IMG/VR virus record: IMGVR_UViG_3300028563_000011
Coordinates: 32,001-96,000 of that record
Reading direction: 5' to 3' (one strand)
Source of the DNA: a virus
DNA: 64,000 bases
Below, one piece after another: positions 16,820 through 46,482 of this stretch (position 1 is the stretch's first letter; each line of letters begins with the position of its first letter). The notes beneath the pieces are model-generated. The model had not been told where the DNA came from and did no database searches. It was given only the letters and a program-made list of their open reading frames with translations. Made by a program: the position numbers and the translations under genes.

Positions 16820-19372
16820 TTACACTTTGAGTTCTTTTAATGTACCCCGCAAAGCTTGTAATCCTTGCATGACTTTGTCTTGTCCAGGAGCAGCTTTAGC
16901 GGCATCTGGAGGAACAGTAAAGCCCGAAGATCGCCCTACGGCAGAAAGTGGTACATGTTGTACTCCAGCTTTGCTCTGACGTTCACGAAGAGCAATAAGA
17001 GCTTCTGCCGCTTTTAAGACTTTCTGACGAGCAGCCTCACCAGAAATATCTTGAGTTTTTGCAACACGTTGAACTAAACCAGAAGCTTTGTCCTTAAGTT
17101 GACTACTTTCAGCGTATTTGATTATACCAGCCATAGCTTTAGGAGAAAGTTCTGGACCGGCATTGATTTTGTCTAAGACTGAGAAGACATGTGGAGAAGC
17201 AAACCAAGCCGCAGCAGCTAAAGCTAAAGTTGTTCCTGCTGCCAAAGCAGCTGCTCGACCAAAGCGTTTAATCCGCCCGATCTTTGCCGGTTCTTTAGCT
17301 ACTTCTGCTTTTGACGCGCCCGGACTTGAAGCAAAGCGCCCACCCTTACCATGATTTGGATTGAACTTATTTATACCTTCATTTGAGATTTTATCTAGAA
17401 TTTGGCTTACTAATGATAATCTATCCCTTACTGGATTGCCCTGAGTAATAGCTGGACGTTCCTTACCAATAGTATTAACTTGCTTTAATGAATACTTTTT
17501 ATTCACATCATCCACAATCCCTTTCAATATTTTAGCTGATTTTGCCTTTGATGCTCCAGTCTTTTTAGAAAACTCATTTACCATGTCAGTCATGGTAGAA
17601 GATATTTCTTCTTTAGACTTTGCACTAATGGCTTGCTTAAAAGCCCTCTTGAATTTACTTCTTAAGTATAAGGAGCGAATCTTCTTTGCAGCAATCGCTA
17701 CTCCTAATGCTGCAACTGCTGCCCCAACTGATGCTACGATTTGGGCTTGCTGTTGAACCTCTGGTCCGTACCTACCAGGTCCACTGGCCATATTTGGCAA
17801 CCCTAACCCAGAACTAAATCTACCCTTAGAATCATGATTTGGATTTCCAACAGTAGCTCCCATACGACTCAACGCAGAAGCAGCAGCTTGTTTCTCTCCT
17901 AAGGAGGTGTTAGGATGATGGTACAAATTTCTTGCTGCAGCAATACGTTCTTGTCTACCCTTGGTTAGTAGAATAGATTTTGTTAACTTATTTATATCTT
18001 CATTTTTTAATTCATCAAGAACTTGAATCAACATATCTACTTTATCTTTAAGCTGGGCTGGATCTACTGCTTTGTTTAGAGAAGCATTAGCTTCATGCTC
18101 CTTAATCGCTTTCATGTCTAAAGCAACAAGCCTAATACGTCCAATTGCCTCTCGAGAAGTTAACTTATCATTCCTAGCAATTTGTCGAGCTAGCACTTTT
18201 GCTCTAAACTTCATATTCTCTTTAGCAGCCGGACTCGATAAAATAGCTTTAAGTCCTTGTTTCATTGCTCGCATTGCACGAGCATTATGAAATTTTGCTC
18301 GTAACTTACGAGCCACATTATGTACAGAGGTTGCAACCAAGACTGCAACAGGAGCAGCTACAGCTGCGGCTGTTAATTTCTCTCCGGTAGACATTCTATT
18401 AAATTCAGCCTTAGCCCTAGCAGCCCCCCCGCTGGCTAAACCAGCTGCCGCAGAAGCAAAATGTCCTAAAGCATCATGGTAAGGATTCCCCCATTTTGTT
18501 AACTTATTTATAGGATCCATTGGCTTTTGCCAACGCGCAGGCTTGGTTGACTGCGGTTTTCTTTTCTCTGGACGCTCACGCGCTAGCTTTAGACTAGCCC
18601 AAGTAACATCAGGATGAGCCTTGGCTTTTGCATGATAAGCTTGAGCATCCGACCTACTAATAAATCGAGTTGTACGTACACGCTTGTCTCTCGTTAAAAC
18701 TGTAACCGAATGTGTGCCAGTCTTATCTCCTGAAGAAGCAACAAATTTACCTGTTTTAGGATCATGGTTAGGGTTACCAATCTTAGAAACGCTTATCTTA
18801 TTCTTATCTGTCAATGTCGTTGAAACAAACTTGGTCGCCCCCCTCATATGAGGCTCTTTGCTAGCCAATTCTTTAGCATGATCGTGATTTAGGGCAGTTA
18901 CCATCACTTGTCCTACAGGCTGCAGTCCGCCTAGGACATGCGGATGAGGAGCAAATCCCATCACGTAGTGTGATGTTCCTTGATGAGGCCCAGAACCAGG
19001 ACCGCCTTTCTTTAAAGATTGCATCCCCCTAAGAAATTTCTTGCCTCGCCTTCCCTTACCCCCCAAAGAAACTCGGCCACCTAAATACGTAGCAATATGA
19101 GTTGGACCCTCAATATTACCAGCGCCAGCACCTACACCACCATCCAAGTCCTTCTGAAACTTAAGCATGTTGTCTTTAAGTGTTTCAATTCTAGCTGCAA
19201 TTTTCTTTTTACGACCAACAAGAATATCATTCACCGAGTCTGAGTTAGAACCATCCTTCTCAATATCTGCTCGTTTCATAATCACCATCCGAGCATGTTC
19301 CTGGCAAGGGTTATCCACGGCCGAAATCTCTGTAATACGTAATTTGTGAAGGATGCGCTTCTTCTCAGTCAT
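16820..19372 (-). CDS. Basic multi-module head accessory polyprotein with 4 NPxHD-type tags
   Basis: N-terminal LRITEISAVDNPCQEHARMVIMKR (prohead-associated motif); NPNHDPKTGKF, NPYHDALGHF, NPNHDSKGRF and NPNHGKGGRF; hydrophobic helices. Confidence 0.7.
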   Translation of the reverse strand: MTEKKRILHKLRITEISAVDNPCQEHARMVIMKRADIEKDGSNSDSVNDILVGRKKKIAARIETLKDNMLKFQKDLDGGVGAGAGNIEGPTHIATYLGGRVSLGGKGRRGKKFLRGMQSLKKGGPGSGPHQGTSHYVMGFAPHPHVLGGLQPVGQVMVTALNHDHAKELASKEPHMRGATKFVSTTLTDKNKISVSKIGNPNHDPKTGKFVASSGDKTGTHSVTVLTRDKRVRTTRFISRSDAQAYHAKAKAHPDVTWASLKLARERPEKRKPQSTKPARWQKPMDPINKLTKWGNPYHDALGHFASAAAGLASGGAARAKAEFNRMSTGEKLTAAAVAAPVAVLVATSVHNVARKLRAKFHNARAMRAMKQGLKAILSSPAAKENMKFRAKVLARQIARNDKLTSREAIGRIRLVALDMKAIKEHEANASLNKAVDPAQLKDKVDMLIQVLDELKNEDINKLTKSILLTKGRQERIAAARNLYHHPNTSLGEKQAAASALSRMGATVGNPNHDSKGRFSSGLGLPNMASGPGRYGPEVQQQAQIVASVGAAVAALGVAIAAKKIRSLYLRSKFKRAFKQAISAKSKEEISSTMTDMVNEFSKKTGASKAKSAKILKGIVDDVNKKYSLKQVNTIGKERPAITQGNPVRDRLSLVSQILDKISNEGINKFNPNHGKGGRFASSPGASKAEVAKEPAKIGRIKRFGRAAALAAGTTLALAAAAWFASPHVFSVLDKINAGPELSPKAMAGIIKYAESSQLKDKASGLVQRVAKTQDISGEAARQKVLKAAEALIALRERQSKAGVQHVPLSAVGRSSGFTVPPDAAKAAPGQDKVMQGLQALRGTLKELKV

Positions 19373-31872: not shown

Positions 31873-32675
31873 CGTCCCCTACCATAATCCCCAAACTCAA
31901 CTGGAACACGAAAGGTCTCAGGACCTTGACCCGCTGCATTGGCCTCTGCTAACATACGGTCAAACAATTCAGGTATTTCGGGCATAGGATGAAGTTCATC
32001 TCTACCATTGTACCAATGAGGCTTACCCTCCAACTTTAACCTAGCACGAGCATGTTTGTGATTTGGTTGTGTGGGGATATTAGTATAGTGTATAAGCTTT
32101 ACCTTCCCATCATATATAGTCGGACGATATTGAGCCTTATCATCATCCTTACCATCTAAACAATTCCACTCACCTTGAAACACCCCCGCATGTTTAGCTA
32201 TAGTACTACGCACAGGACGATAAGCCCCCTCCACTGTCTTTAAGTGTTCAATTGGAGGTAAGACTTTCTTCATACGCTCATTATCCATGAGCATAACACA
32301 TGAAGCCCCAATTTTAGACATAAGTAGGGCTTTACCATCTGGAATTGTTTGATTCCAGAGTTCTGCAACATCCGCAATAAAGATTTGATCACAATCACAA
32401 TAGATCGCCTTGCCTTGAAACTCACAAGCCGCTGGAATACCCCAACGAAGACTGGAAAAGGGTGTGGCTGCTCCTCGCATATTCCACCCCTTACGAGGAT
32501 TTGCTTGTGGGTCACTATACCAAAAGCTATTCGGGTCGCGAGAAAGCATCATCCAAATAATATCAACATCATCCTGAGGGTGGTGCTTACGCAAAGACCA
32601 GGCAAAAACCGCCTGGCATTCTAAATCTTCATTATTGGCTGGAGTACCGACGAACACCCGTATTCGTTCAGACAT
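31869..32675 (-). CDS. GT8-like glycosyltransferase
   Basis: IRVFVG, TPFSSLRW.IP, AIYCDCD, WNCLD and LIHYT. Confidence 0.8.
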   Translation of the reverse strand: MSERIRVFVGTPANNEDLECQAVFAWSLRKHHPQDDVDIIWMMLSRDPNSFWYSDPQANPRKGWNMRGAATPFSSLRWGIPAACEFQGKAIYCDCDQIFIADVAELWNQTIPDGKALLMSKIGASCVMLMDNERMKKVLPPIEHLKTVEGAYRPVRSTIAKHAGVFQGEWNCLDGKDDDKAQYRPTIYDGKVKLIHYTNIPTQPNHKHARARLKLEGKPHWYNGRDELHPMPEIPELFDRMLAEANAAGQGPETFRVPVEFGDYGRGR

Positions 32676-34068: not shown

Positions 34069-35940
34069 TCAAGGCTGTCCTCCTTCTGCAACAATCTTAG
34101 CTTTGCTACCGTTATTGTCTATAAGCACCCAATGCTTCAAGCTTGGTTTTAGAGTGTCAAAGGTTTGCTCGTTTGTACGTTGGTTAAAAGGTACCTCAGG
34201 AGGTACAAAATAACCAGTTGACATAAATCGAGACATAGCTCTACTTGTAGCGGTTTCAGGTGCTGCGTGAACGTAGTAACCTTTTACATCATACCCCGCA
34301 GCTTTATACGCAGCAACGCGCTCTTGCGCTTGCTGAGTTACAGCCATTGTAGCGTCATATATTATATTCAAACCAGCACTACGTGCAATACGCTCCGCCT
34401 GTGCTACTAAATCTCTCGCTTCTGGTAGATAGAGTTCTGCATTAGCGCCATTGTAGCCCGGCATAGATTCTCTAATTGTATCTGCTGATAAGTAGAAATA
34501 CTTTGATTTATCGATTCCTTCTAAGGCAGAAGTCTTACCTGAACCTGGGCGACCACCCGTCATAATCAATTCTGGGGCTTTACCAGGGTCTGGAGTTGCA
34601 GCTTGAATAATGTCTTTCCTAAACAAATGCTCCAATAAGTTCTTATGCAAAGCTTGACGTGCTGGAGTATACTGACCATCAGCAGTTGTATGCTGTTCTT
34701 TTGTTGAAGGGTTAGAAGCAATCAATTCCTTTGCTCGTGCTATTGCCGTTGTTGTATCGCCCGGTATTATTTTCAATACATCATCTAAAGTAAGTTCTGG
34801 CTTTAGATTTTGTCGTAATAAAGCTACAGCAGAACCTTTAGCCGAGTCTGATGTAGCAAAACGTCCTCGCTCATCGTGATGGGGATTGAATTTTTCTATA
34901 GCAGCTGTAGTGAACCTTCCCAATTTGTCGTGATACGGATTAGCCTTGTTGGTGATTTCTAAATCACCATGACCGTGAGGAATAGGCTTAACGTCAGCGT
35001 CTTTCGGCTGGTTGGTAAACGACTCCTTTTCTAATTGAGCTTCCTGACCACGACACCAAGCCGACCAAGCATCCCAATCAATATCATTGTCTTTAGCATA
35101 AGCCCGCTCAGTTGGCGTTCCAGCCTCGTTATGGGCCTTCAAGTAAAGTGTCTTCCGCTCTTCTTCGTTAGGCTCACGACCTTCTTTGTCCTTAAAATCT
35201 TGCAACAAAGCATCAATCTTGGTCTTCTCAGCGACCTCATGTTGTAAAAGCATATCAGATACAATAACTTCTTTATCTTTAATTGTAGTCTTTTCCGGTA
35301 AGTTCTTATTCTGATACATTGTCTTGCCATCTTGACTCATGCAAGACATCCAAGGCCCATCATGTTCTAAATCAACCTTAACTCCGCTTGTATTAACTTT
35401 CTCCATATCTGGAGCATAGAGATCAATTGCTTCTTTTAATTGAGTTAAGATCTCTAAGACAGGATCAAGATCCTTCTTTATCTCAGGCTGTTTGTTACGC
35501 AAAGACTTCAACGCTGCTACAGAACTCTTCAAGATTGTTTTGGTCTGTTCTTTTGGCACACCCATTGTCGTTGACAGATTATGTACAACATATGAAATGT
35601 ACTCATCAACATCAGGGCCATGAAGAGTATTCCAAGACCCATTCTTTGCGGCGTACCCTACGATGGAAGACAAAGCCAAGGCAACAAGGTCTTTTACCGA
35701 CTGTTTTGTCTTTGGATGTTTTGCTACAGAAATTAAGACTTGTCTAGCCGACTTACCATGAATAAATTCAGACGTAGCTTTGAAGCCTACTTGTAAAAAA
35801 TTTGAGAAACGCCCCTTAGCGTCATGGTAGGGGTTAGCTTTCTCTATTGGGTTGAAAGCTTTGCTCAAAGCCAAGACACAATACGTCTTACCGTTTGACC
35901 GGAAAGTATCACCAACTCGTAACTGCGCTAACGAATTCAT
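34069..35940 (-). CDS. Tagged polyprotein with C-terminal zeta-toxin-like P-loop kinase
   Basis: Three NP(Y/H)HDxxGRF tags; TGGRPGSGKTS, SADTIR, NIIYDAT and RAMSR zeta motifs. Confidence 0.8.
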   Translation of the reverse strand: MNSLAQLRVGDTFRSNGKTYCVLALSKAFNPIEKANPYHDAKGRFSNFLQVGFKATSEFIHGKSARQVLISVAKHPKTKQSVKDLVALALSSIVGYAAKNGSWNTLHGPDVDEYISYVVHNLSTTMGVPKEQTKTILKSSVAALKSLRNKQPEIKKDLDPVLEILTQLKEAIDLYAPDMEKVNTSGVKVDLEHDGPWMSCMSQDGKTMYQNKNLPEKTTIKDKEVIVSDMLLQHEVAEKTKIDALLQDFKDKEGREPNEEERKTLYLKAHNEAGTPTERAYAKDNDIDWDAWSAWCRGQEAQLEKESFTNQPKDADVKPIPHGHGDLEITNKANPYHDKLGRFTTAAIEKFNPHHDERGRFATSDSAKGSAVALLRQNLKPELTLDDVLKIIPGDTTTAIARAKELIASNPSTKEQHTTADGQYTPARQALHKNLLEHLFRKDIIQAATPDPGKAPELIMTGGRPGSGKTSALEGIDKSKYFYLSADTIRESMPGYNGANAELYLPEARDLVAQAERIARSAGLNIIYDATMAVTQQAQERVAAYKAAGYDVKGYYVHAAPETATSRAMSRFMSTGYFVPPEVPFNQRTNEQTFDTLKPSLKHWVLIDNNGSKAKIVAEGGQP

Positions 35941-38900
35941 TCGAGTATCTCTTGAGCGATGATCTCTAAACCTTCACCATCCTCAATAAAACGTGTGATC
36001 TTAGCTATTGTTTCTTGAGGTAAGGCTTGTTCATCATTTTCACGCTGATCCATATCGTCAAGCATTCCAATTAAGTAATCTAAAATAGCAACAACAGGAT
36101 CGGACGCATCGACTTGAACTTTCTCTATCTGACCCTTACGATAAGCCTTTAAGAGATTTAGGAAAACCTTGACCGTAGCTCGCGCTTGACCAATTGTGAT
36201 ATCTCTTTGCTGAGCCTCTCCCAATACCGTACGCTCAATTAGGGAATTGACTTGCCTTTGAATAGGAGCAGAGAAAGGCACACCTTGGTCTTTTGTTGCT
36301 TGGTTTAACAGATGAGAAGCAAGTTGTGCAACTCCCTCACGACCCAATACTGAAGCGTGATCTTTCAAGACTTCAGCTGAAGAACTTGTTCTAAACCATT
36401 TGGCAACCTCAAAGGCTCTATCCACAAGGCTCAATCCAGCTACAGCTGCTGTTACGCTTAGAGCATGCTTCAGTGTCAAAGAACGTGTGGCCGCCTTTTG
36501 GGCGTACTCTTGATCCATAGCCAACGTTGCGGCATGTCTAGACGCAGTGATAGGACGGCGGGCACCAGCAACATCTGTAAAGCGTCCTCTTCCGTCATGG
36601 TAGGGATTAGCTTTCTCAACAGAACCCTGCTTTTTAGGAATTAAAACCATAAATAAAGTCACAGAATCAGACAGCCCTTTTTCTATACGCTCATTGAAAA
36701 CTTTTGTTGTAGGCTCTTTAGCAATACCAACAATCCACTCTGGCTTAACTTCTCCTTTAAATTTGAAGTCTGAATTCTTCCCAGTAAAACCCTCAGTAAC
36801 ATCTGCACTAGCTCGCTTATCAAATTCCTCTTTTGGTATCTTTATTTCCAAAATTACAGGTTCTGACTTATTGATTTCAGCAGCTAAATCTGCAAACCCT
36901 GCTGCTTGTTCCCAGTCAAAAGACACGTAAACATAACCTTTAGTATCCCTTATTAGCTCCTGCTTCTCAGCCTTAGACATCCCTTTCATAATAAAACGAT
37001 CAGCACCTTTTCCTCCTTGAGGTTTTAATCCCTCTCGCATAATTTGACTTAGTGTCTTTTCATTAGTCCCATGAAAAACAGTAGTAGCCCATTTCCCAGA
37101 CTTATCCCGGGGTTCATCTGGGTTGAAGGCTTTAGATAAGTCTTCATCAGACCCCATATTGTCAAGGTCTTCTTGCAATGCCTGAAGTATTTCCAAGATT
37201 GGGTCAGTTTCATCAGCTTTCTTAATCTCAGACTCACGCAACTTTTGGAATACCTGTATAGCTAAATGCAAAGCTGCACGAGCATGTGCTAATGTAACAT
37301 AATCCAAAGCACCAGGCTTGGGCTGACCTTCAGGAGTACTCCTACTAAAGTGATGGACAGTAGAATAGATAAAATTCCTCACATCTTGATGTAAGCCTGG
37401 GTCTTGGCTACCTAACTTATGTTCAATTGCTGTACCAGCAATAAAAGTCAAGATATGCCCAATTGCTTCCTTTGCTATAAATAAAGATTCATTCTTAACT
37501 GTTTGTTTAACAGGTTCTGACGATAACCATTCTTTTGTACGTAATACCTTACCTTTCAACCCAGGAACATTTGCAAAGGCTGAAGGCTGAGGTGGGGTTT
37601 CCTGAGGGTGTTCATGTATTCCAGGAGAGCTTGACGCACTACCGAAACCAGCTGTAAACCGACCGTGACTATCTCTAGGTTTATACCCACGATTGGCTTT
37701 AGTGAATTCCTCGTCCCAACTCTCAACATCATCAAGGTCAAAGAACTTCTTGACGTTCTTTGGGTTTGTAACATTCTGATTCCCAGCTGAACCTTTACCC
37801 CCAGACTTTGCTGGAGGCTGAGAACCGTTAACTGAAGGTTGGGTTCCACCGTTACCACCAGGTTGACCTCCACCCCCGCCAGGTTGTCCCGGGGTTTGGC
37901 CAGCAAACTTAGCTCTAGCTGTTGCTTCAGCCATCTTTACTGGGTCTACTGGCTTGCCATCTGGACCAAACTTCATTCCAGCCTTAGCTTGTTGCTGCTG
38001 CTGATACATATCCATATCAGGCTCAGGCTGACGCTCAATACCCAACAAATCACGTACATCATCAATCGCTGGATCATCGGGACGTAAGACAGCACCAGCT
38101 GTAGCCATTTGCGCTAATGAAGCTGTAATCTCTTGAACAGTACGGAAAGCCAACTCAGAGTGCTTTAACTTAGGACGTAATTCATCTTTAATACCATTCA
38201 AGTCACAAAGAGGTTCAATAACATCCTTATTACAAGCATCAGTAATTTCATCCAGGGTACCATTAACAACAAGATAGAAATTCTGAGACTTGTCGGATGC
38301 TAGAGCTCTAGAACCACCACCTTTGTCTCCAAGCAATAAGTTCTCAACGCCAAGAATACGCGCCATTTCTAGAATAGTACGATCAATAGCTTGACCAATT
38401 TCAGCAAAGCCAACTGAACCACCTTGCAGGAGTTCCACACCAAACTGCATTGCACTTGAAACTGAAGGACCAGAATCAGTCTCAACAATGTACGGGGCTG
38501 AGTCCATAACGATTGAAGTATCGTTAGACTTGGATTGCATCTTAACGAAGTCTTCAACAGCTTGAGTAATTCCAGTAGCATCTTCTTTGGTTAATTGACC
38601 CGCTTGTACAGCTTTACGTATTGCAGTGTAAGGCACCCGTCCAATGGGGATACCACGTAAGTCACGTTCAAAGCCTCGACCTTCTAGCTCGAAATATTTC
38701 TTCAAGCGTTCCCAAGGCTCGATAAGATGACGATACAAACCAATTCCTTCTGGGGAATCAGTTAAAGTATCGTCTACCATGTACATAACTTTGGAGCGTG
38801 GGATATAAAGCAAAGCCCCACCTATAGGAGCACGTTGCCACACTCCAACCACAGAACCGTTATCGTCAAGTTCCCAACGCTCAATTGTATGCTGAGGCCG

Positions 38901-41657: not shown

Positions 41658-43472
41658 TCACTTATCCGGGTGTTTAGAATCATACACCTCCCCGTCCTTG
41701 AAGACTTTAGGACCCATTCCAAGCATGAACGTAGGTTGGACTACCGGCCAGTAATTCATAACAATTGAATCTGCCAGGTTAGGTGATACCGTACCATCTG
41801 GTGATTTGTCAACTAAAAGTTTTAACCTAGAGTTCTTAGACGCAGTAGCTTGTGACAACTCTTTCTCAATCTTACGTAAAAGAGGTAGCTTAGAGTCAAG
41901 TGAGATTAACGTGTCTGGATCGTGTTTAACACCTTGTGTAACAACTTGATATGTACGAAGGAAACGGTTGCGCAATTCCCACCAAGCTTGTGCTTTTAGG
42001 TTGGCATAGAAATCTTTGTTCTTAGGTGAGTCTAGGTCACCTTCATTGACTCTTGCATTAGGGTATAACACAGATGAACCAGCATTCCATGCAATAAACT
42101 GTAATCCTTTTGGTATAATTAGCTTACCTTCACTATCTTTTTCTTCCATTAAGCGATTTGTCTCAGCTTTAACAGCGGCACCAACTCCAATACAATCGTA
42201 CTGAAGGGATAAGGCTCCTAAACCTAAGACAGCTGCTACAGCACGTCTAGCTGTTACGCCGGGGTCTCTAGCACCCCACTCTTCCGCAAAGCGTAGGACT
42301 ACCCCCTGGCGCTTAGATAGGGCATTACGGTCACCACCTTCATCAGCTACGTCTAAAGCTGCACCCCAGGGCCCACCTTCGTGCCAACCTTCAAGAGAAG
42401 TTACATTGGCATGTAAGTGAGCGTCAATTGACGCTTTCACCCACTCATTAGGTATAATGACACCAGCTAATGCTGCAGTATAGTTACGATCTACTTCTTG
42501 AGCTAAAAGATGTAGTGTACCTTTGTCTTCTGCGTTTCTTCTACGTTCAGCGTACCACTCTTCTGTTTTATCAGGGTGATCCCTCCAATCCATAACAAGA
42601 ACACGTGTTTTGCCTCTCGGTATTACAGCACCAGGGTACCAATCAATACCACCCTCACGAGTTCTATGGAATAAGTTACCAGGCCCATTAACAGAAGACA
42701 TATCAATTGGGACACGAGTAGTATCCCCTAAAGACGCTTCAATCAACTCTGGATGCTCGTAATGGCTACTCTCATCTTTCATGTAGAGAAGTGTGCGCCC
42801 ACCTCTACCAATATTATCCCCAATTTCTCCTTTTATAACTGATCCGTTTGAAGGGTTAATACAACGCATAAAGGTAAGATGATCACGCGGTTCTAATCCT
42901 TGAGGTAAAAACACTTCTGGTAAACCGCGAATCATCATCCTAATCTTTTCAAAGATTGAGTCGGGATCACCCAGCTTATCCACTTTTGGTTGGGTAGCTG
43001 AGCCCCAACCAATTTGAGAGCTAGGCCAAAATAACCAAAGCCAAACTGAGAAAGCAACTCCAATCCAAGTTGCTCCCATATCTCTCGACTTTTCAATTAA
43101 GCCCGGTTGCTCATCTTTCAAACAAGAAAGAAGGAACTGTAACATTTCTACTTGCTTAGGAAACATAATAAATGGAAATCGAGTAAGCTTACCTTCTTTA
43201 CCAACATTACGTGGCTCATATAAATCAACCCAATGATTAATCCACTCTAATGAGTGTTCCTTGTAGTAAGCTTTAGCTGATTCGATAAGTTCAGGTCTAA
43301 ACTCAAACTTATCCAACTGGTTTTTACGCCAAACTAAAACGCTGTCGTAATTAGGCGGCCAGTTTTCTCTTGAACAAGGCTGTGGTGGTTTAAGTTTAGT
43401 CGCACTTGCTCTTAACAGACGTTCAACACGTACTGTACGTAAAGCCTCAGATACGTCTATTAAGCCAGACAC
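41658..43472 (-). CDS. terL: Terminase large subunit
   Basis: EKSRDMGATW Walker A, KDES Walker B, LDVADEGGD nuclease motif and SPNLADS. Confidence 0.92.
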   Translation of the reverse strand: MSGLIDVSEALRTVRVERLLRASATKLKPPQPCSRENWPPNYDSVLVWRKNQLDKFEFRPELIESAKAYYKEHSLEWINHWVDLYEPRNVGKEGKLTRFPFIMFPKQVEMLQFLLSCLKDEQPGLIEKSRDMGATWIGVAFSVWLWLFWPSSQIGWGSATQPKVDKLGDPDSIFEKIRMMIRGLPEVFLPQGLEPRDHLTFMRCINPSNGSVIKGEIGDNIGRGGRTLLYMKDESSHYEHPELIEASLGDTTRVPIDMSSVNGPGNLFHRTREGGIDWYPGAVIPRGKTRVLVMDWRDHPDKTEEWYAERRRNAEDKGTLHLLAQEVDRNYTAALAGVIIPNEWVKASIDAHLHANVTSLEGWHEGGPWGAALDVADEGGDRNALSKRQGVVLRFAEEWGARDPGVTARRAVAAVLGLGALSLQYDCIGVGAAVKAETNRLMEEKDSEGKLIIPKGLQFIAWNAGSSVLYPNARVNEGDLDSPKNKDFYANLKAQAWWELRNRFLRTYQVVTQGVKHDPDTLISLDSKLPLLRKIEKELSQATASKNSRLKLLVDKSPDGTVSPNLADSIVMNYWPVVQPTFMLGMGPKVFKDGEVYDSKHPDK

Positions 43473-44029
43473 GAGTACCTACCTTTGATCAACTTAAGTT
43501 GTTTTTGTAGTCTTTTAATAGTGCTTGTACGTACTGTAGCTAATGAATCATAATACCCTACATCCCTTGGCTTACCGTAATGACGAGCACCACTAACCCG
43601 GTCTCCAGATATTGTCTCTGCTTTAGGGTAAAGACGTTTGAGTTGTCTAGCTATATCTCGAACACTACTAGAGCCAAGACCCAAAGGTTTATCAAAAGCT
43701 GATACTGCACTTTCATTTTCTGGACTAGACTCAATACTCAAATCCTTACCTACCCATTCTACGTACAAATGCTTAGGATCTGCAACATTCAAAACAACTG
43801 AACCAACCCTTTGGTTAAATACATCCCTAATATGATAATGATCGTATTGTTCTCCTGGCTGTACAATTTCTTTATGACTAAATACAAGGTAAGGTTTAGA
43901 ACCAGAAGAGGACCACTTCCCAGATTTATCTCTAGGCTCTTCCGGGTTGAAAGCTTTGTTCATTCCCTGCTGGACCTTTACCAGGTCCAGTTGAAGGTTC
44001 ATGATCTGTAGTTGTGTTTGAAGGCCCAC
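43460..44029 (-). CDS. Tagged protein with GNAT-like cargo domain
   Basis: MNK-AFNPEEPRDKSGKW, then LYVEWV...LGLG...RQLKRLYP...ISGDRVSGAR. Confidence 0.6.
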   Translation of the reverse strand: MGLQTQLQIMNLQLDLVKVQQGMNKAFNPEEPRDKSGKWSSSGSKPYLVFSHKEIVQPGEQYDHYHIRDVFNQRVGSVVLNVADPKHLYVEWVGKDLSIESSPENESAVSAFDKPLGLGSSSVRDIARQLKRLYPKAETISGDRVSGARHYGKPRDVGYYDSLATVRTSTIKRLQKQLKLIKGRYSCLA

Positions 44030-44718: not shown

Positions 44719-44940
44719 TTACACCCAGAAAGCCCTAGGAGGGTCAACTAACGTACCATTAGCTTCAAGCACAGCAGCCCAAAAAGCCTTAGCCTCTGGG
44801 GTTTTAGATTTGCACTTTTGCATACGAGCGTGAGTAATACGATGATTTCTCGGCCAACTACGATCTTGCTTAAGGAATTCCTCAACGCTAAGAGTTGTAA
44901 TATCTACGTTCACTTGACTTCCTTTATGCTTTGCTGGCAT
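44719..44940 (-). CDS. Hypothetical protein
   Basis: ORF with FWAAVLEAN motif; start uncertain. Confidence 0.4.
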   Translation of the reverse strand: MPAKHKGSQVNVDITTLSVEEFLKQDRSWPRNHRITHARMQKCKSKTPEAKAFWAAVLEANGTLVDPPRAFWV

Positions 44941-45095
44941 AGGATTTCTGCTGCCTCCGCTAGAGTGTGGATGTCTACAAAGAATTGTCTTGCTATTTGT
45001 AGCATACTCCTACGAGCGTCTTCGTCAGGTTCCTTTTCTTCAACAAAAGAAGCCTCAATAATCAAAAAGGCAGCTTCGATTTCTCTAACACTCAT
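44910..45095 (-). CDS. Hypothetical protein
   Basis: Start re-called to MSVREIE (GGAG RBS), because the track start lies inside the tRNA. Confidence 0.5.
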   Translation of the reverse strand: MSVREIEAAFLIIEASFVEEKEPDEDARRSMLQIARQFFVDIHTLAEAAEILCQQSIKEVK

Positions 45096-45115
45096 TTTGA
45101 TGTTTCTCCATAGTG

Positions 45116-45192
45116 TGGTGCTGCTAGATAGATTCGAACTACCAACCGACTGCTTACAAGGCAGCTGCTCTACCAATTGGAGCTATAGCAGC
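45116..45192 (-). tRNA. tRNA-Thr(UGU)
   Basis: GCTGCTA acceptor, CTTGTAA anticodon loop, GTTCGAAT T-loop and encoded CCA. Confidence 0.92.
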
Positions 45193-45203
45193 AAAGAGTG
45201 TAA

Positions 45204-45301
45204 GACTGATAAAGCCTGCCTCGACAGCTTTTTGATCGAAGTGGCTAGATAAACTGTTTGACCGCGAGCGAGGACGGTCCAGGCCACTTACTTTATCAGT
45301 C
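45204..45301 (-). ncRNA. Structured RNA motif, copy 1 (unassigned; ribozyme-like candidate)
   Basis: Closing stem GACTGATAAAG/CTTTATCAGTC; inner AAGTGGC/GCCACTT; ACCG-TCCTCGCTCG-CGGT hairpin; covaries with copy 2. Confidence 0.65.
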
Positions 45302-45354
45302 CAACCTCACTTCATCCAAAGGCGTACACCTTACTGTGGATGAAGCGAAGGATA

Positions 45355-45795
45355 CTACTTCTCAAAGACTTTGGGTACGTGACCTTCACGTATCTTAGCC
45401 TTTATCTGTGATGCTAGACGCGTAGCAAGTTGCACATCATAATCTGGCCTACTCGCCCAGTACTGCATCTTATCACTTGCATGAGCAAGCTCAGTATGAG
45501 CACGTTTAGCCTTTGCAGGGTCTTCAGCTGTCTTTGCTAAGTGACTCAAGTATACATACGCTGCAAAGTGCTTAGCCCAATTTGCAGTTGGGTTAGGTTG
45601 CCTGCCTGACCAAGGGACTTTCTTACCACCCCCATACATCTGCTTATCAGAATAAACAATCCCCATACCAGGAGAAGAACTAAATCGACCAAATTTGTCA
45701 TGATAAGGATCAGCTTTAGCCAAACAACCAAACAATGCTACTGACTCTCGTAAAGAGTCAATTCTCTGGGCTAGGACTTGAGTTGTATTCACCAT
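45355..45795 (-). CDS. DPYHD-tagged protein of unknown function
   Basis: Coiled-coil leader, LAK-ADPYHDKFGRF, then helical cargo. Confidence 0.7.
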   Translation of the reverse strand: MVNTTQVLAQRIDSLRESVALFGCLAKADPYHDKFGRFSSSPGMGIVYSDKQMYGGGKKVPWSGRQPNPTANWAKHFAAYVYLSHLAKTAEDPAKAKRAHTELAHASDKMQYWASRPDYDVQLATRLASQIKAKIREGHVPKVFEK

Positions 45796-45810
45796 CCTTA
45801 GTCCTTTAGG

Positions 45811-45996
45811 GAGTTAGAGGAAGACTAACAGCTGGCCCCGACCAGTTATGCCAAGTGTCAAGCTATATTCTTCAGGCCTTTCGGTGTTCCCAGTATACGT
45901 ACCAAGATTGTACATAGTAACCGAGCCGGTTATCTCCCAAAGCCAACAGCGAGCGAGGACTGTCCAAGACACTTACTTTTAGTCTTCCCCTAACTC
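45811..45996 (-). ncRNA. Structured RNA motif, copy 2
   Basis: 18-bp closing stem overlapping the terS stop; AAGTGTC/GACACTT; ACAG-TCCTCGCTCG-CTGT. Confidence 0.65.
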
Positions 45997-46482
45997 TTCT
46001 ACATACGCCGCTGCATCAATATCAAGTTCATTAACATGTCCATTTGTATACCCACTAGACTCACCTGATGCAATCTTACCCAGTGCCTTCTCCATAGTCA
46101 ATAACTCAGTCTCTGACAAACCCTTCAAAGCCTCAGGAGGTAATGCTAGAACCTGCACTGTACCTTTAAGAGTAGTAGCTGTAAGCTTTGGTGTGAAACA
46201 ATTAAGCAATCTATCAGCAGCCCACTTCTTATCATCCCAAGAAACAGGATACTCCCATTTATTTCTACCACTACCACCAGTAGCCCTATTTGCTCTAAGC
46301 ACCATCAACATAAAATCCAGTGGCATAATACCACCATTTGCTATATGTGCCTCTGCTGCTTTTTCTCGTAATTGCACAGGCATTTTGTTCTTAGCACCCT
46401 GTGGCCTACCCTGTGTATGATTACCACCATTAAAATGACGATTATCAACAGTACCCTCTTTCGTGATACGTACACGCTTCAT
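45979..46482 (-). CDS. terS: Terminase small subunit
   Basis: GRPQGAKNK...MPLDFMLMV...AA...PKL motifs. Confidence 0.75.
   Translation of the reverse strand: MKRVRITKEGTVDNRHFNGGNHTQGRPQGAKNKMPVQLREKAAEAHIANGGIMPLDFMLMVLRANRATGGSGRNKWEYPVSWDDKKWAADRLLNCFTPKLTATTLKGTVQVLALPPEALKGLSETELLTMEKALGKIASGESSGYTNGHVNELDIDAAAYVEELGED

Follow-up and report, generated by a model that had tools for sequence, protein, structure and literature searches.

Positions 32,001 to 96,000 of the IMG/VR virus record IMGVR_UViG_3300028563_000011, a stretch of 64,000 nucleotides (nt) that we call the window, carry two copies of a structured RNA on the minus strand, at 45204-45301 and 45811-45996. A sequence-only reading of this DNA had proposed two copies of an unassigned structured RNA there, and both were present when the sequence was read again. 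The two copies belong to a family of elements of about 85 nt with some 42 distinct homologues elsewhere, in which every helix, the long-range pseudoknot included, is backed by compensatory changes. We regard the family and its fold, as predicted from these changes, as almost certainly real. Judged by sequence and model comparisons, the family is absent from Rfam 15 and from the literature searched, and is unrelated to any known family. The novelty is that of the RNA family; as to function we can only infer, and we tentatively place the element in the processing of polycistronic transcripts.

In the predicted fold, stem A closes the element, a long arm made of stem B, two further pairs and hairpin P3 lies on one side, and a short hairpin, H, lies on the other, the two being locked together by the pseudoknot. 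Stem A has 5-8 base pairs (bp) in most members, with an overall range of 5 to 21, and runs into the 7-bp stem B without a spacer. Past stem B come a bulged pyrimidine and an invariant U-G, which pairs with the U-A of an invariant C-U-A. P3, stacked on these pairs, has 5 bp, and an unconserved linker of 10-12 nt connects its 3′ strand to the C-U-A. The P3 loop consists of U, the pseudoknot segment CCNCG, and Y-U-Y-G. The 3′ strand of stem B is followed by an invariant C, usually a G, at least one variable base, and an invariant A-A-G, often in the form C-GNAA-G. Hairpin H has 3 bp and the loop N-CGNGG, and directly abuts the 3′ strand of stem A, the junction strands being 0, 6 and 0 nt long. 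Five Watson-Crick pairs join the P3 loop to the H loop. About 20 nt are nearly invariant, namely the C-U-G and C-U-A that flank the P3 branch, the C...A-A-G in the junction between B and H, and loop residues. Invariant cytosines stand in the C-U-A beside the 3′ strand of stem B and at the start of that junction (J). The strand is continuous through the pseudoknot, H and A, which suggests that P3, the pseudoknot, H and A may form one coaxial stack, with stem B alongside and the linker as a hinge.

Copy 1 (45204-45301) has the compact form and was delimited by reading the sequence, by minimum free energy (MFE) folding and by a family covariance model (R1), which scores it at 80 bits (E 8e-14). 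On the minus strand, its stem A pairs 45290-45301 with 45204-45215 (12 positions) and stem B pairs 45283-45289 with 45239-45245 (AAGUGGC/GCCACUU). A bulged C at 45282 and U-G at 45281-45280 lead to P3, in which 45275-45279 pair with 45260-45264, (G)ACCG/CGGU(C), around the loop L3 at 45265-45274, UCCUCGCUCG. The variable linker (45249-45259) is 11 nt long and is followed by CUA at 45246-45248, with junction J at 45228-45238. Hairpin H pairs 45225-45227 with 45216-45218 around the loop UCGAGG (45219-45224), and the pseudoknot joins CCUCG at 45269-45273 in L3 to CGAGG at 45219-45223 in the H loop.

Copy 2 (45811-45996), delimited by reading the sequence, pairwise alignment and folding, is a divergent form. 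Its stem A pairs 45976-45996 with 45811-45831 (21 positions, with one A.G and one G.U), a U.G pair follows (45975 with 45832), and stem B pairs 45968-45974 with 45853-45859 (AAGUGUC/GACACUU). P3 pairs 45960-45964 with 45945-45949, (G)ACAG/CUGU(U), and its L3 loop (45950-45959) is again UCCUCGCUCG, identical to that of copy 1. Where copy 1 has its linker, copy 2 carries an insert of about 80 nt (45863-45944) that pairs with itself. CUU stands at 45860-45862 and junction J at 45845-45852, while H pairs 45842-45844 with 45833-45835 around the loop UCGGGG (45836-45841). The pseudoknot of copy 2 joins CCUCG at 45954-45958 to CGGGG at 45836-45840 and includes a U.G pair. At positions that are nearly invariant in the family, copy 2 has CUU for CUA and the junction GGCAUAAC for C-G-N-A-A-G. 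The family model gives it only 14.5 bits because of the insert of about 80 nt, and copy 2 may be a decaying or functionally altered duplicate.

Both copies thus share one block, which runs 5′ to 3′ as stem A, U, AAGUG(G/U)C, (C/U)UGG and a 5-bp hairpin with the 10-nt loop UCCUCGCUCG, and continues with the linker, C-U-(A/U), the 7-nt complement, a purine-rich junction, a 3-bp hairpin and the closing strand. In the window, the 12-mer GTCCTCGCTCGC is found at 45264-45275 and 45949-45960 only, both on the minus strand, and the whole 110.6-kb phage record has no further occurrence. All the pairings that the sequence-only reading had described in the two copies are present. The compensatory changes in its P2, which is our stem B (AAGUGGC/GCCACUU versus AAGUGUC/GACACUU), and in the hairpin ACCG/CGGU versus ACAG/CUGU around the invariant loop are as it read them. 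So is the complementarity of the H loops, UCGAGG and UCGGGG, to CCUCG, where the change turns U-A into U.G. A closing stem is present in both copies; its lengths are 12 and 21 positions rather than 11 and 18, and in copy 2 it contains an A.G besides the G.U. The insertion of about 80 nt in copy 2 was correctly seen, the counterpart in copy 1 being 11 nt instead of about 15. The resemblance of the copies extends to their closing stems, which speaks for a lineage-specific duplication, and the sequence suggests that the window arrangement arose as an internal duplication with one copy on each side of a gene of 146 amino acids (aa).

Homologues were found by pattern scans of IMG/VR and of metagenome contigs of the Joint Genome Institute (JGI), followed by sorting with model R1 and by eye. 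The model was built from an alignment (A3) of 13 compact members. Several loose viral patterns returned mostly chance matches. Model R1 gave 47 + 11 matches, of which about 42 are distinct sequences. Because these homologues occur elsewhere and show strong covariation, the likeness of the two window copies is more than chance, and what had been proposed from the sequence as a structured RNA outside known families is borne out. The search patterns demanded the conserved core, and the census covers core-bearing members. The members span G+C fractions of 0.47 to 0.79, with the window copies (0.50) towards the AT-rich end. The nearest relatives of the window copies are the loci L296, L306 and L324, which have the same longer junction. 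A search of IMG/VR with the open reading frame (ORF) upstream of copy 2 (45979-46482) found no relatives of the source phage itself.

Covariation was computed on an alignment of 37 sequences (A4), and the set of 13 gave the same picture. Standard pairs fill 99.3% of 911 cells, a share that falls to 35-42% when the partners are slid by 1-3 columns. Changes on both sides occur in 15 of the 25 pairs, and double-change cells number 132 against 31 expected; the observed covariation score was reached by none of 500 shuffles. Support extends to all four helices (3 of 5 pairs in stem A, 5 of 7 in stem B, 4 of 5 in P3 and 2 of 3 in H). The loop-loop pairing was kept out of the covariance model, and its columns were aligned without reference to pairing. 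It nevertheless appears as CCUCG:CGAGG in 21 members, CCCCG:CGGGG in 14 and CCACG:CGUGG in 1 plus 3 more members, and is never unpaired. Its middle pair is UA in 21 cases, CG in 14 and AU in 1, with none unpaired, and copy 2 of the window represents a U.G intermediate. Since the pseudoknot covaries across the family although it was left out of the model, the kissing loop that the sequence-only reading had offered as a possibility is real.

The strand is set by wobble pairs. Of 36 sequences, 24 have U.G as the innermost pair of stem A (A4 columns 8:105), and about 48 cells in total are G.U, all of which would be A.C mismatches if the opposite strand were read. Because these wobbles are so frequent, the RNA is read from the given (sense) strand, which in the window is the minus strand, as had been proposed. 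MFE folding recovers the architecture in both copies (z -3.85 for copy 1 and z -3.53 for copy 2), and antisense MFE folds score similarly; the strand assignment therefore rests on the wobbles and not on energy. At all 16 loci checked, the nearest annotated gene is co-directional with the motif.

The two computational checks that the sequence-only reading had proposed, a scan with the Rfam models and a search with a covariance model, both favour a new family, the second through the homologues described above. With all 4227 families of Rfam 15, the only matches in the window at gathering thresholds are two tRNAs, and neither copy is matched even at E<=10, where the region 44900-46300 gives noise only. 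Six other members gave tRNAs only at E<=10, and a gathering-threshold scan of 144 kb of sequence neighbouring the members gave no match. A compact member found no blastn match among 50,697 deposited phage genomes, and a 4-kb window query to the deposited phage genomes returned tRNA-Thr genes only. A scan of bacterial genomes returned 50 loci (L009-L058), all of them chance matches in GC-rich coding DNA; its pattern was poorly chosen and it is silent on prophages and hosts. The literature searched describes no RNA motif with such a fold. The closest data set is that of Fremin et al. (2023; PMC10690425), in which the same data source was mined for the same kind of object, giving 8495 candidate structured RNAs of DNA viruses from IMG/VR, of which 14 precede a putative large terminase. 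The main text of that paper describes no motif with such a fold; our motif may be among its unnamed IMG/VR candidates.

The motif is inserted tightly between genes. The upstream stop codon lies 0-60 nt before it, sometimes inside stem A, and the next start codon is commonly 16-24 nt past it, with the Shine-Dalgarno site outside the fold. An all-against-all BLAST comparison of the flanking ORFs revealed no protein family in common. Of the 16 loci whose context suffices, about 7 have the motif just upstream of the terminase cluster, with 1-4 small genes between it and the large terminase gene, terL (the window, L002, L005, L127, L137, L272 and L119). Elsewhere it directly follows genes for a DNA methylase (L308), a UvsX-like recombinase (L173), portal-type proteins (L059 and L148) or a protease-capsid protein (L162), or lies near replication genes (L006 and L299). 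The five other phage records that were searched whole contain one copy each. Two copies are found in the window of the source phage, in L298 and in L173. In L298 (60-900, minus strand), the motif and the start of the downstream gene (MIITKKLVRR) are duplicated in tandem, and a tRNA(CUA) with an encoded CCA lies between the copies, 18 nt before the second. This tRNA is amber-suppressor-like and was labelled Pyl by ARAGORN. The second copy in L173 (9996-10081, minus strand) is divergent (44 bits, with the pseudoknot CCACG:CGUGG) and falls within the stretch for the His-rich N-terminus of a predicted secreted protein, whose homologue in L148 ends 4 nt before the motif of that locus. Either the L173 ORF was given a wrong start or the RNA lies within a coding region.

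Contact with tRNA genes was observed in three of the roughly 42 members. In L317 (2022-2183, plus strand), a tRNA-Arg(UCU) with an encoded CCA is followed by a single A and then by stem A of the motif, the only juxtaposition in the family that resembles that of theta ribozymes. The other two contacts are the 18-nt spacing in L298 and the 11 nt that separate copy 1 from the downstream tRNA-Thr of the window. The sequence-only reading had suggested that the element might excise the enclosed messenger RNA (mRNA) or mature the 5′ leader of the tRNA. Neither stands as a general role, because most phages have one copy and no adjacent tRNA: the five records searched whole carry single copies, the tandem duplication of motif plus gene in L298 also lends no support to excision, and in two of the three members that touch a tRNA, the tRNA lies upstream of the motif. 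These settings are peculiar to the source phage and are not properties of the family.

The features described next, around the two copies in the window, are all on the minus strand. The tRNA-Thr (45116-45192, anticodon UGU; ARAGORN, and 63.8 bits with the Rfam tRNA model) begins 11 nt past copy 1, as had been described. The 146-aa ORF between the copies (45355-45795) starts 16 nt after copy 2 and has no PHROG, Pfam or PDB match. Upstream of copy 2 lies an ORF of 167 aa (45979-46482), whose last codons and TAA stop are covered by the closing stem of copy 2. This overlap had been recognised earlier; the accompanying label terS is unverified, as the PHROG matches of the ORF are all of unknown function and it has no Pfam or PDB match. 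The terminase large subunit (41658-43472; PHROG 2, E 8e-14, and PHROG 5989, E 4e-13) is encoded 1.7 kb downstream and serves as context only. Between the stop codon of the 146-aa ORF and copy 1 is a strong 9-bp hairpin without a U-tract (45310-45345), and the 60 nt upstream of copy 1 fold with a z score of -4.7. Only about 5 of 37 members have a comparable hairpin before them (mean z -0.5 over 37 loci), and the hairpin is outside the family core. Similar upstream hairpins were observed in L005, L314, L321 and L311. A scan for promoters and terminators around the window copies found no excess over shuffled sequence.

The enclosed gene had been called tagged, and tblastn confirmed that a short peptide, ..DP..(H/R)DK.G(R/K)(F/W)SSS.., is common to several ORFs of the source phage. 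It occurs at about residues 22-43 of the 146-aa ORF and at residues 7-42 of a 189-aa ORF upstream of terL (43460-44029, minus strand), and also at 36564-36710, 37080-37187, 35755-35856, 34849-34947, 17318-17374 and 17765-17905. The peptide may be a capsid-targeting or processing signal.

The known RNAs that the motif most invites comparison with are ribozymes like that of hepatitis delta virus (HDV). The first seven bases of the P3 loop (U-C-C-U-C-G-C) equal the L3 loop of HDV, and an invariant C comes before the 3′ strand of the helix leading to P3, in C-U-A here and in C-N-A-A in HDV J4/2; resemblance in sequence ends there. Two of the loop cytosines have guanine partners elsewhere, like those of P1.1, and like theta and other HDV-like ribozymes the motif is phage-borne and in sense orientation, one member (L317) lying 1 nt after a tRNA CCA. 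The architecture differs in that A, B, P3 and H are all nested, with no double pseudoknot and no P1 strand after P3, and in that the loop of the motif forms 5 bp with a hairpin loop far from it instead of the 2-bp P1.1 next to P1. An HDV-like ribozyme has the 3′ strand of P1 immediately behind P3, with P2 closing across it. We tried several mappings onto P1/P2/P3/P1.1/P4, and each needs a P1 strand after P3 that does not exist, the unconserved linker being in its place. Complements to the linker in the 40-nt flanks show no excess (mean runs of 5.6 and 5.1, against 5.3 and 5.0 in shuffled sequence), and the HDV-family models of Rfam give no match at E<=10 in the window region or in six other members.

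Theta ribozymes have their 5′ cleavage site at a tRNA 3′ end in 58% of occurrences (PMC10879173), whereas tRNA adjacency here is limited to 3 of about 42 members. A tRNA 3′ end within 5 nt of the motif is found in L317 only, and about 39 members have no adjacent tRNA. The sequence-only reading had held that the topology is not canonical HDV, and the nested helices, the missing P1/P2 crossing and the absence of model matches agree. On these sequence comparisons, the motif is not a member of the HDV-like/theta ribozyme family.

Other known elements share single traits with the motif. Hammerhead, twister, twister-sister, pistol, hatchet and hairpin ribozymes give no Rfam match at E<=10, and none at gathering thresholds in the 144 kb of neighbourhoods. 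Neither ARAGORN nor the Rfam tRNA model calls anything tRNA-like except the neighbouring genuine tRNAs. Purine riboswitch aptamers and hammerheads (loops I and II) also hold a conserved junction by distal loop-loop contacts, but the motif lacks the CUGANGA/GAAA core and the purine-pocket residues, has no Rfam match, and has one kissing loop nested inside an arm, behind an 11-nt hinge. Phage T7 ribonuclease (RNase) III sites and exoribonuclease-resistant pseudoknots resemble it as sense, intercistronic, compact folds upstream of the next ribosome-binding site. RNase III sites, however, need a duplex of 20 bp or longer, whereas stem A has 5-8 bp, less than about two helical turns, in nearly all members, and only the window copies reach 12 and 21 positions. 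The T7 processing sites also lie at many gene junctions, in contrast to the single motif copy per genome.

The reading that we tentatively put first, from sequence and context, is that the element may be a cis-acting processing or boundary module on a polycistronic transcript. The RNA would fold co-transcriptionally, and cleavage of the transcript, within the conserved core or next to it, would be autocatalytic or the work of an RNase specific for the fold; self-cleavage and RNase-directed cleavage seem about equally likely within this reading. The compact pseudoknotted fold would then stay before the Shine-Dalgarno site of the next gene, or beside a tRNA, and shield or insulate that RNA. Five features point to a self-contained cis element and not to a gene-tuned leader: the tight intergenic sense placement, the lack of a tie to any gene family, the variable closing stem, the tolerance of a large insert, and the ~20 invariant unpaired nucleotides. 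A link to RNA ends is provided by the tRNA-Arg-CCA 1 nt from the motif in L317, the tRNA 18 nt away in L298 and the tRNA-Thr at 11 nt in the window. A new class of small self-cleaving ribozyme, in which an HDV-like loop (U-CCNCG-Y plus an invariant C) would be set in a nested three-way junction with a 5-bp kissing lock, appears unlikely. Under such a scheme, environmental phages, including those of soil, would cut long transcripts at module boundaries and beside tRNAs.

Several observations weigh against a processing or boundary module. One copy in most phages fits a unique regulatory site at least as well. The distal end of stem A lies at a variable distance from the core, so that a cut exactly at the 5′ edge, of the HDV or hatchet kind, is improbable on steric grounds, and the closing stems of 12-21 bp in the window would keep the cleavage products together. 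Upstream hairpins that could be protective stand at only about 5 of 37 loci, and tRNA adjacency is confined to the three members named. The apparent invariance of the core is also partly an artefact of the search, because the patterns demanded it.

Instead, the motif could be recognised by a protein or by RNA polymerase and so control the late genes, as a site present once per genome at the junction of early-replication and terminase-head modules, either as a processive antitermination element of the put or nut kind or as a translational operator. The single copy in five of five other records speaks for such a site, as do the sense orientation, the many invariant loop and junction nucleotides, and the absence of a tie to any one downstream gene family. 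Its position is suggestive as well: about 7 of 16 loci have it just before the terminase cluster, and in others it comes after methylase, recombinase, integrase or replication genes. In L059, L148 and L162, however, the motif lies within the head module, after portal or capsid genes. The flanking ORFs include no co-occurring candidate binding protein, and no recognisable terminator follows the window copies. The put RNAs of phage HK022 are two simple stem-loops without a pseudoknot, which also counts against this explanation. On this balance of sequence evidence, we consider a control site rather unlikely.

A stable small RNA could also be cut out of the transcript and act in trans, for example by titrating a host protein or a defence factor in the manner of a decoy or sponge. 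Small stable RNAs are encoded beside phage tRNA genes, and tRNA genes adjoin the motif in three members; both ends of the element are paired in the closing stem, as in stable processed RNAs, and its compact, pseudoknot-locked fold has conserved exposed residues. No promoter or terminator of its own was detected at the window copies, however, and the motif is in every case squeezed between ORFs of its own direction, the next Shine-Dalgarno site following at once, which makes a trans-acting RNA appear quite improbable from its setting. The chances of a ligand-sensing riboswitch aptamer that would control the downstream gene seem slim. In its size, its pseudoknot and its ~20 invariant nucleotides, unpaired or in the junction, the motif recalls the way aptamers are conserved, and it is mostly found in the 5′ leader of the following ORF. 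Against a riboswitch stand the lack of an expression platform, since the Shine-Dalgarno site and the start codon are outside the fold and no terminator comes after it, and the position of copy 1, which precedes a tRNA and not an ORF; the downstream genes are moreover mutually unrelated, and no Rfam riboswitch model matches.

An RNA resembling the phi29 packaging RNA (pRNA; RF00044), whose loops would pair between molecules to form a ring working with the terminase or portal, is very improbable. The motif parallels phi29 pRNA in its closing helix and three-way junction and in having two loops whose complementarity covaries, and many members lie in the packaging or head module; covariation, moreover, cannot separate pairing within a molecule from pairing between molecules. 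The motif nevertheless differs from phi29 pRNA in having no sequence or model match to it and a 3-bp arm, hairpin H, and its arm lengths permit fold-back within one molecule. Several members occur in replication or methylase modules, and the motif is embedded in mRNA, unlike phi29 pRNA, which is a separate early transcript. The host phages encode ordinary large terminases, and systems of this type are not known to need an RNA. Finally, a DNA-level repeat (a recombination or packaging site) or a chance similarity, which the nearby terminase genes and the two copies flanking a gene in the window might suggest, is effectively refuted by the covariation pattern, in which compensatory changes keep pairing and not sequence, G.U wobbles work on one strand only and the long-range loop-loop covariation has no rationale in DNA, and by homologues in dozens of unrelated contigs.

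The conservation of the motif, its gene-independent intergenic placement and the resemblance of its loop to that of HDV make it a concrete candidate for a ribozyme or an RNA-processing signal. If catalytic, it would add a new class to the short list of natural self-cleaving ribozymes and would represent a convergent or permuted re-use of an HDV-like loop. If regulatory, it would reveal a hitherto undescribed RNA-based control at the early-to-late boundary of many uncultured phages, and it could possibly serve as an insulator part for synthetic operons.

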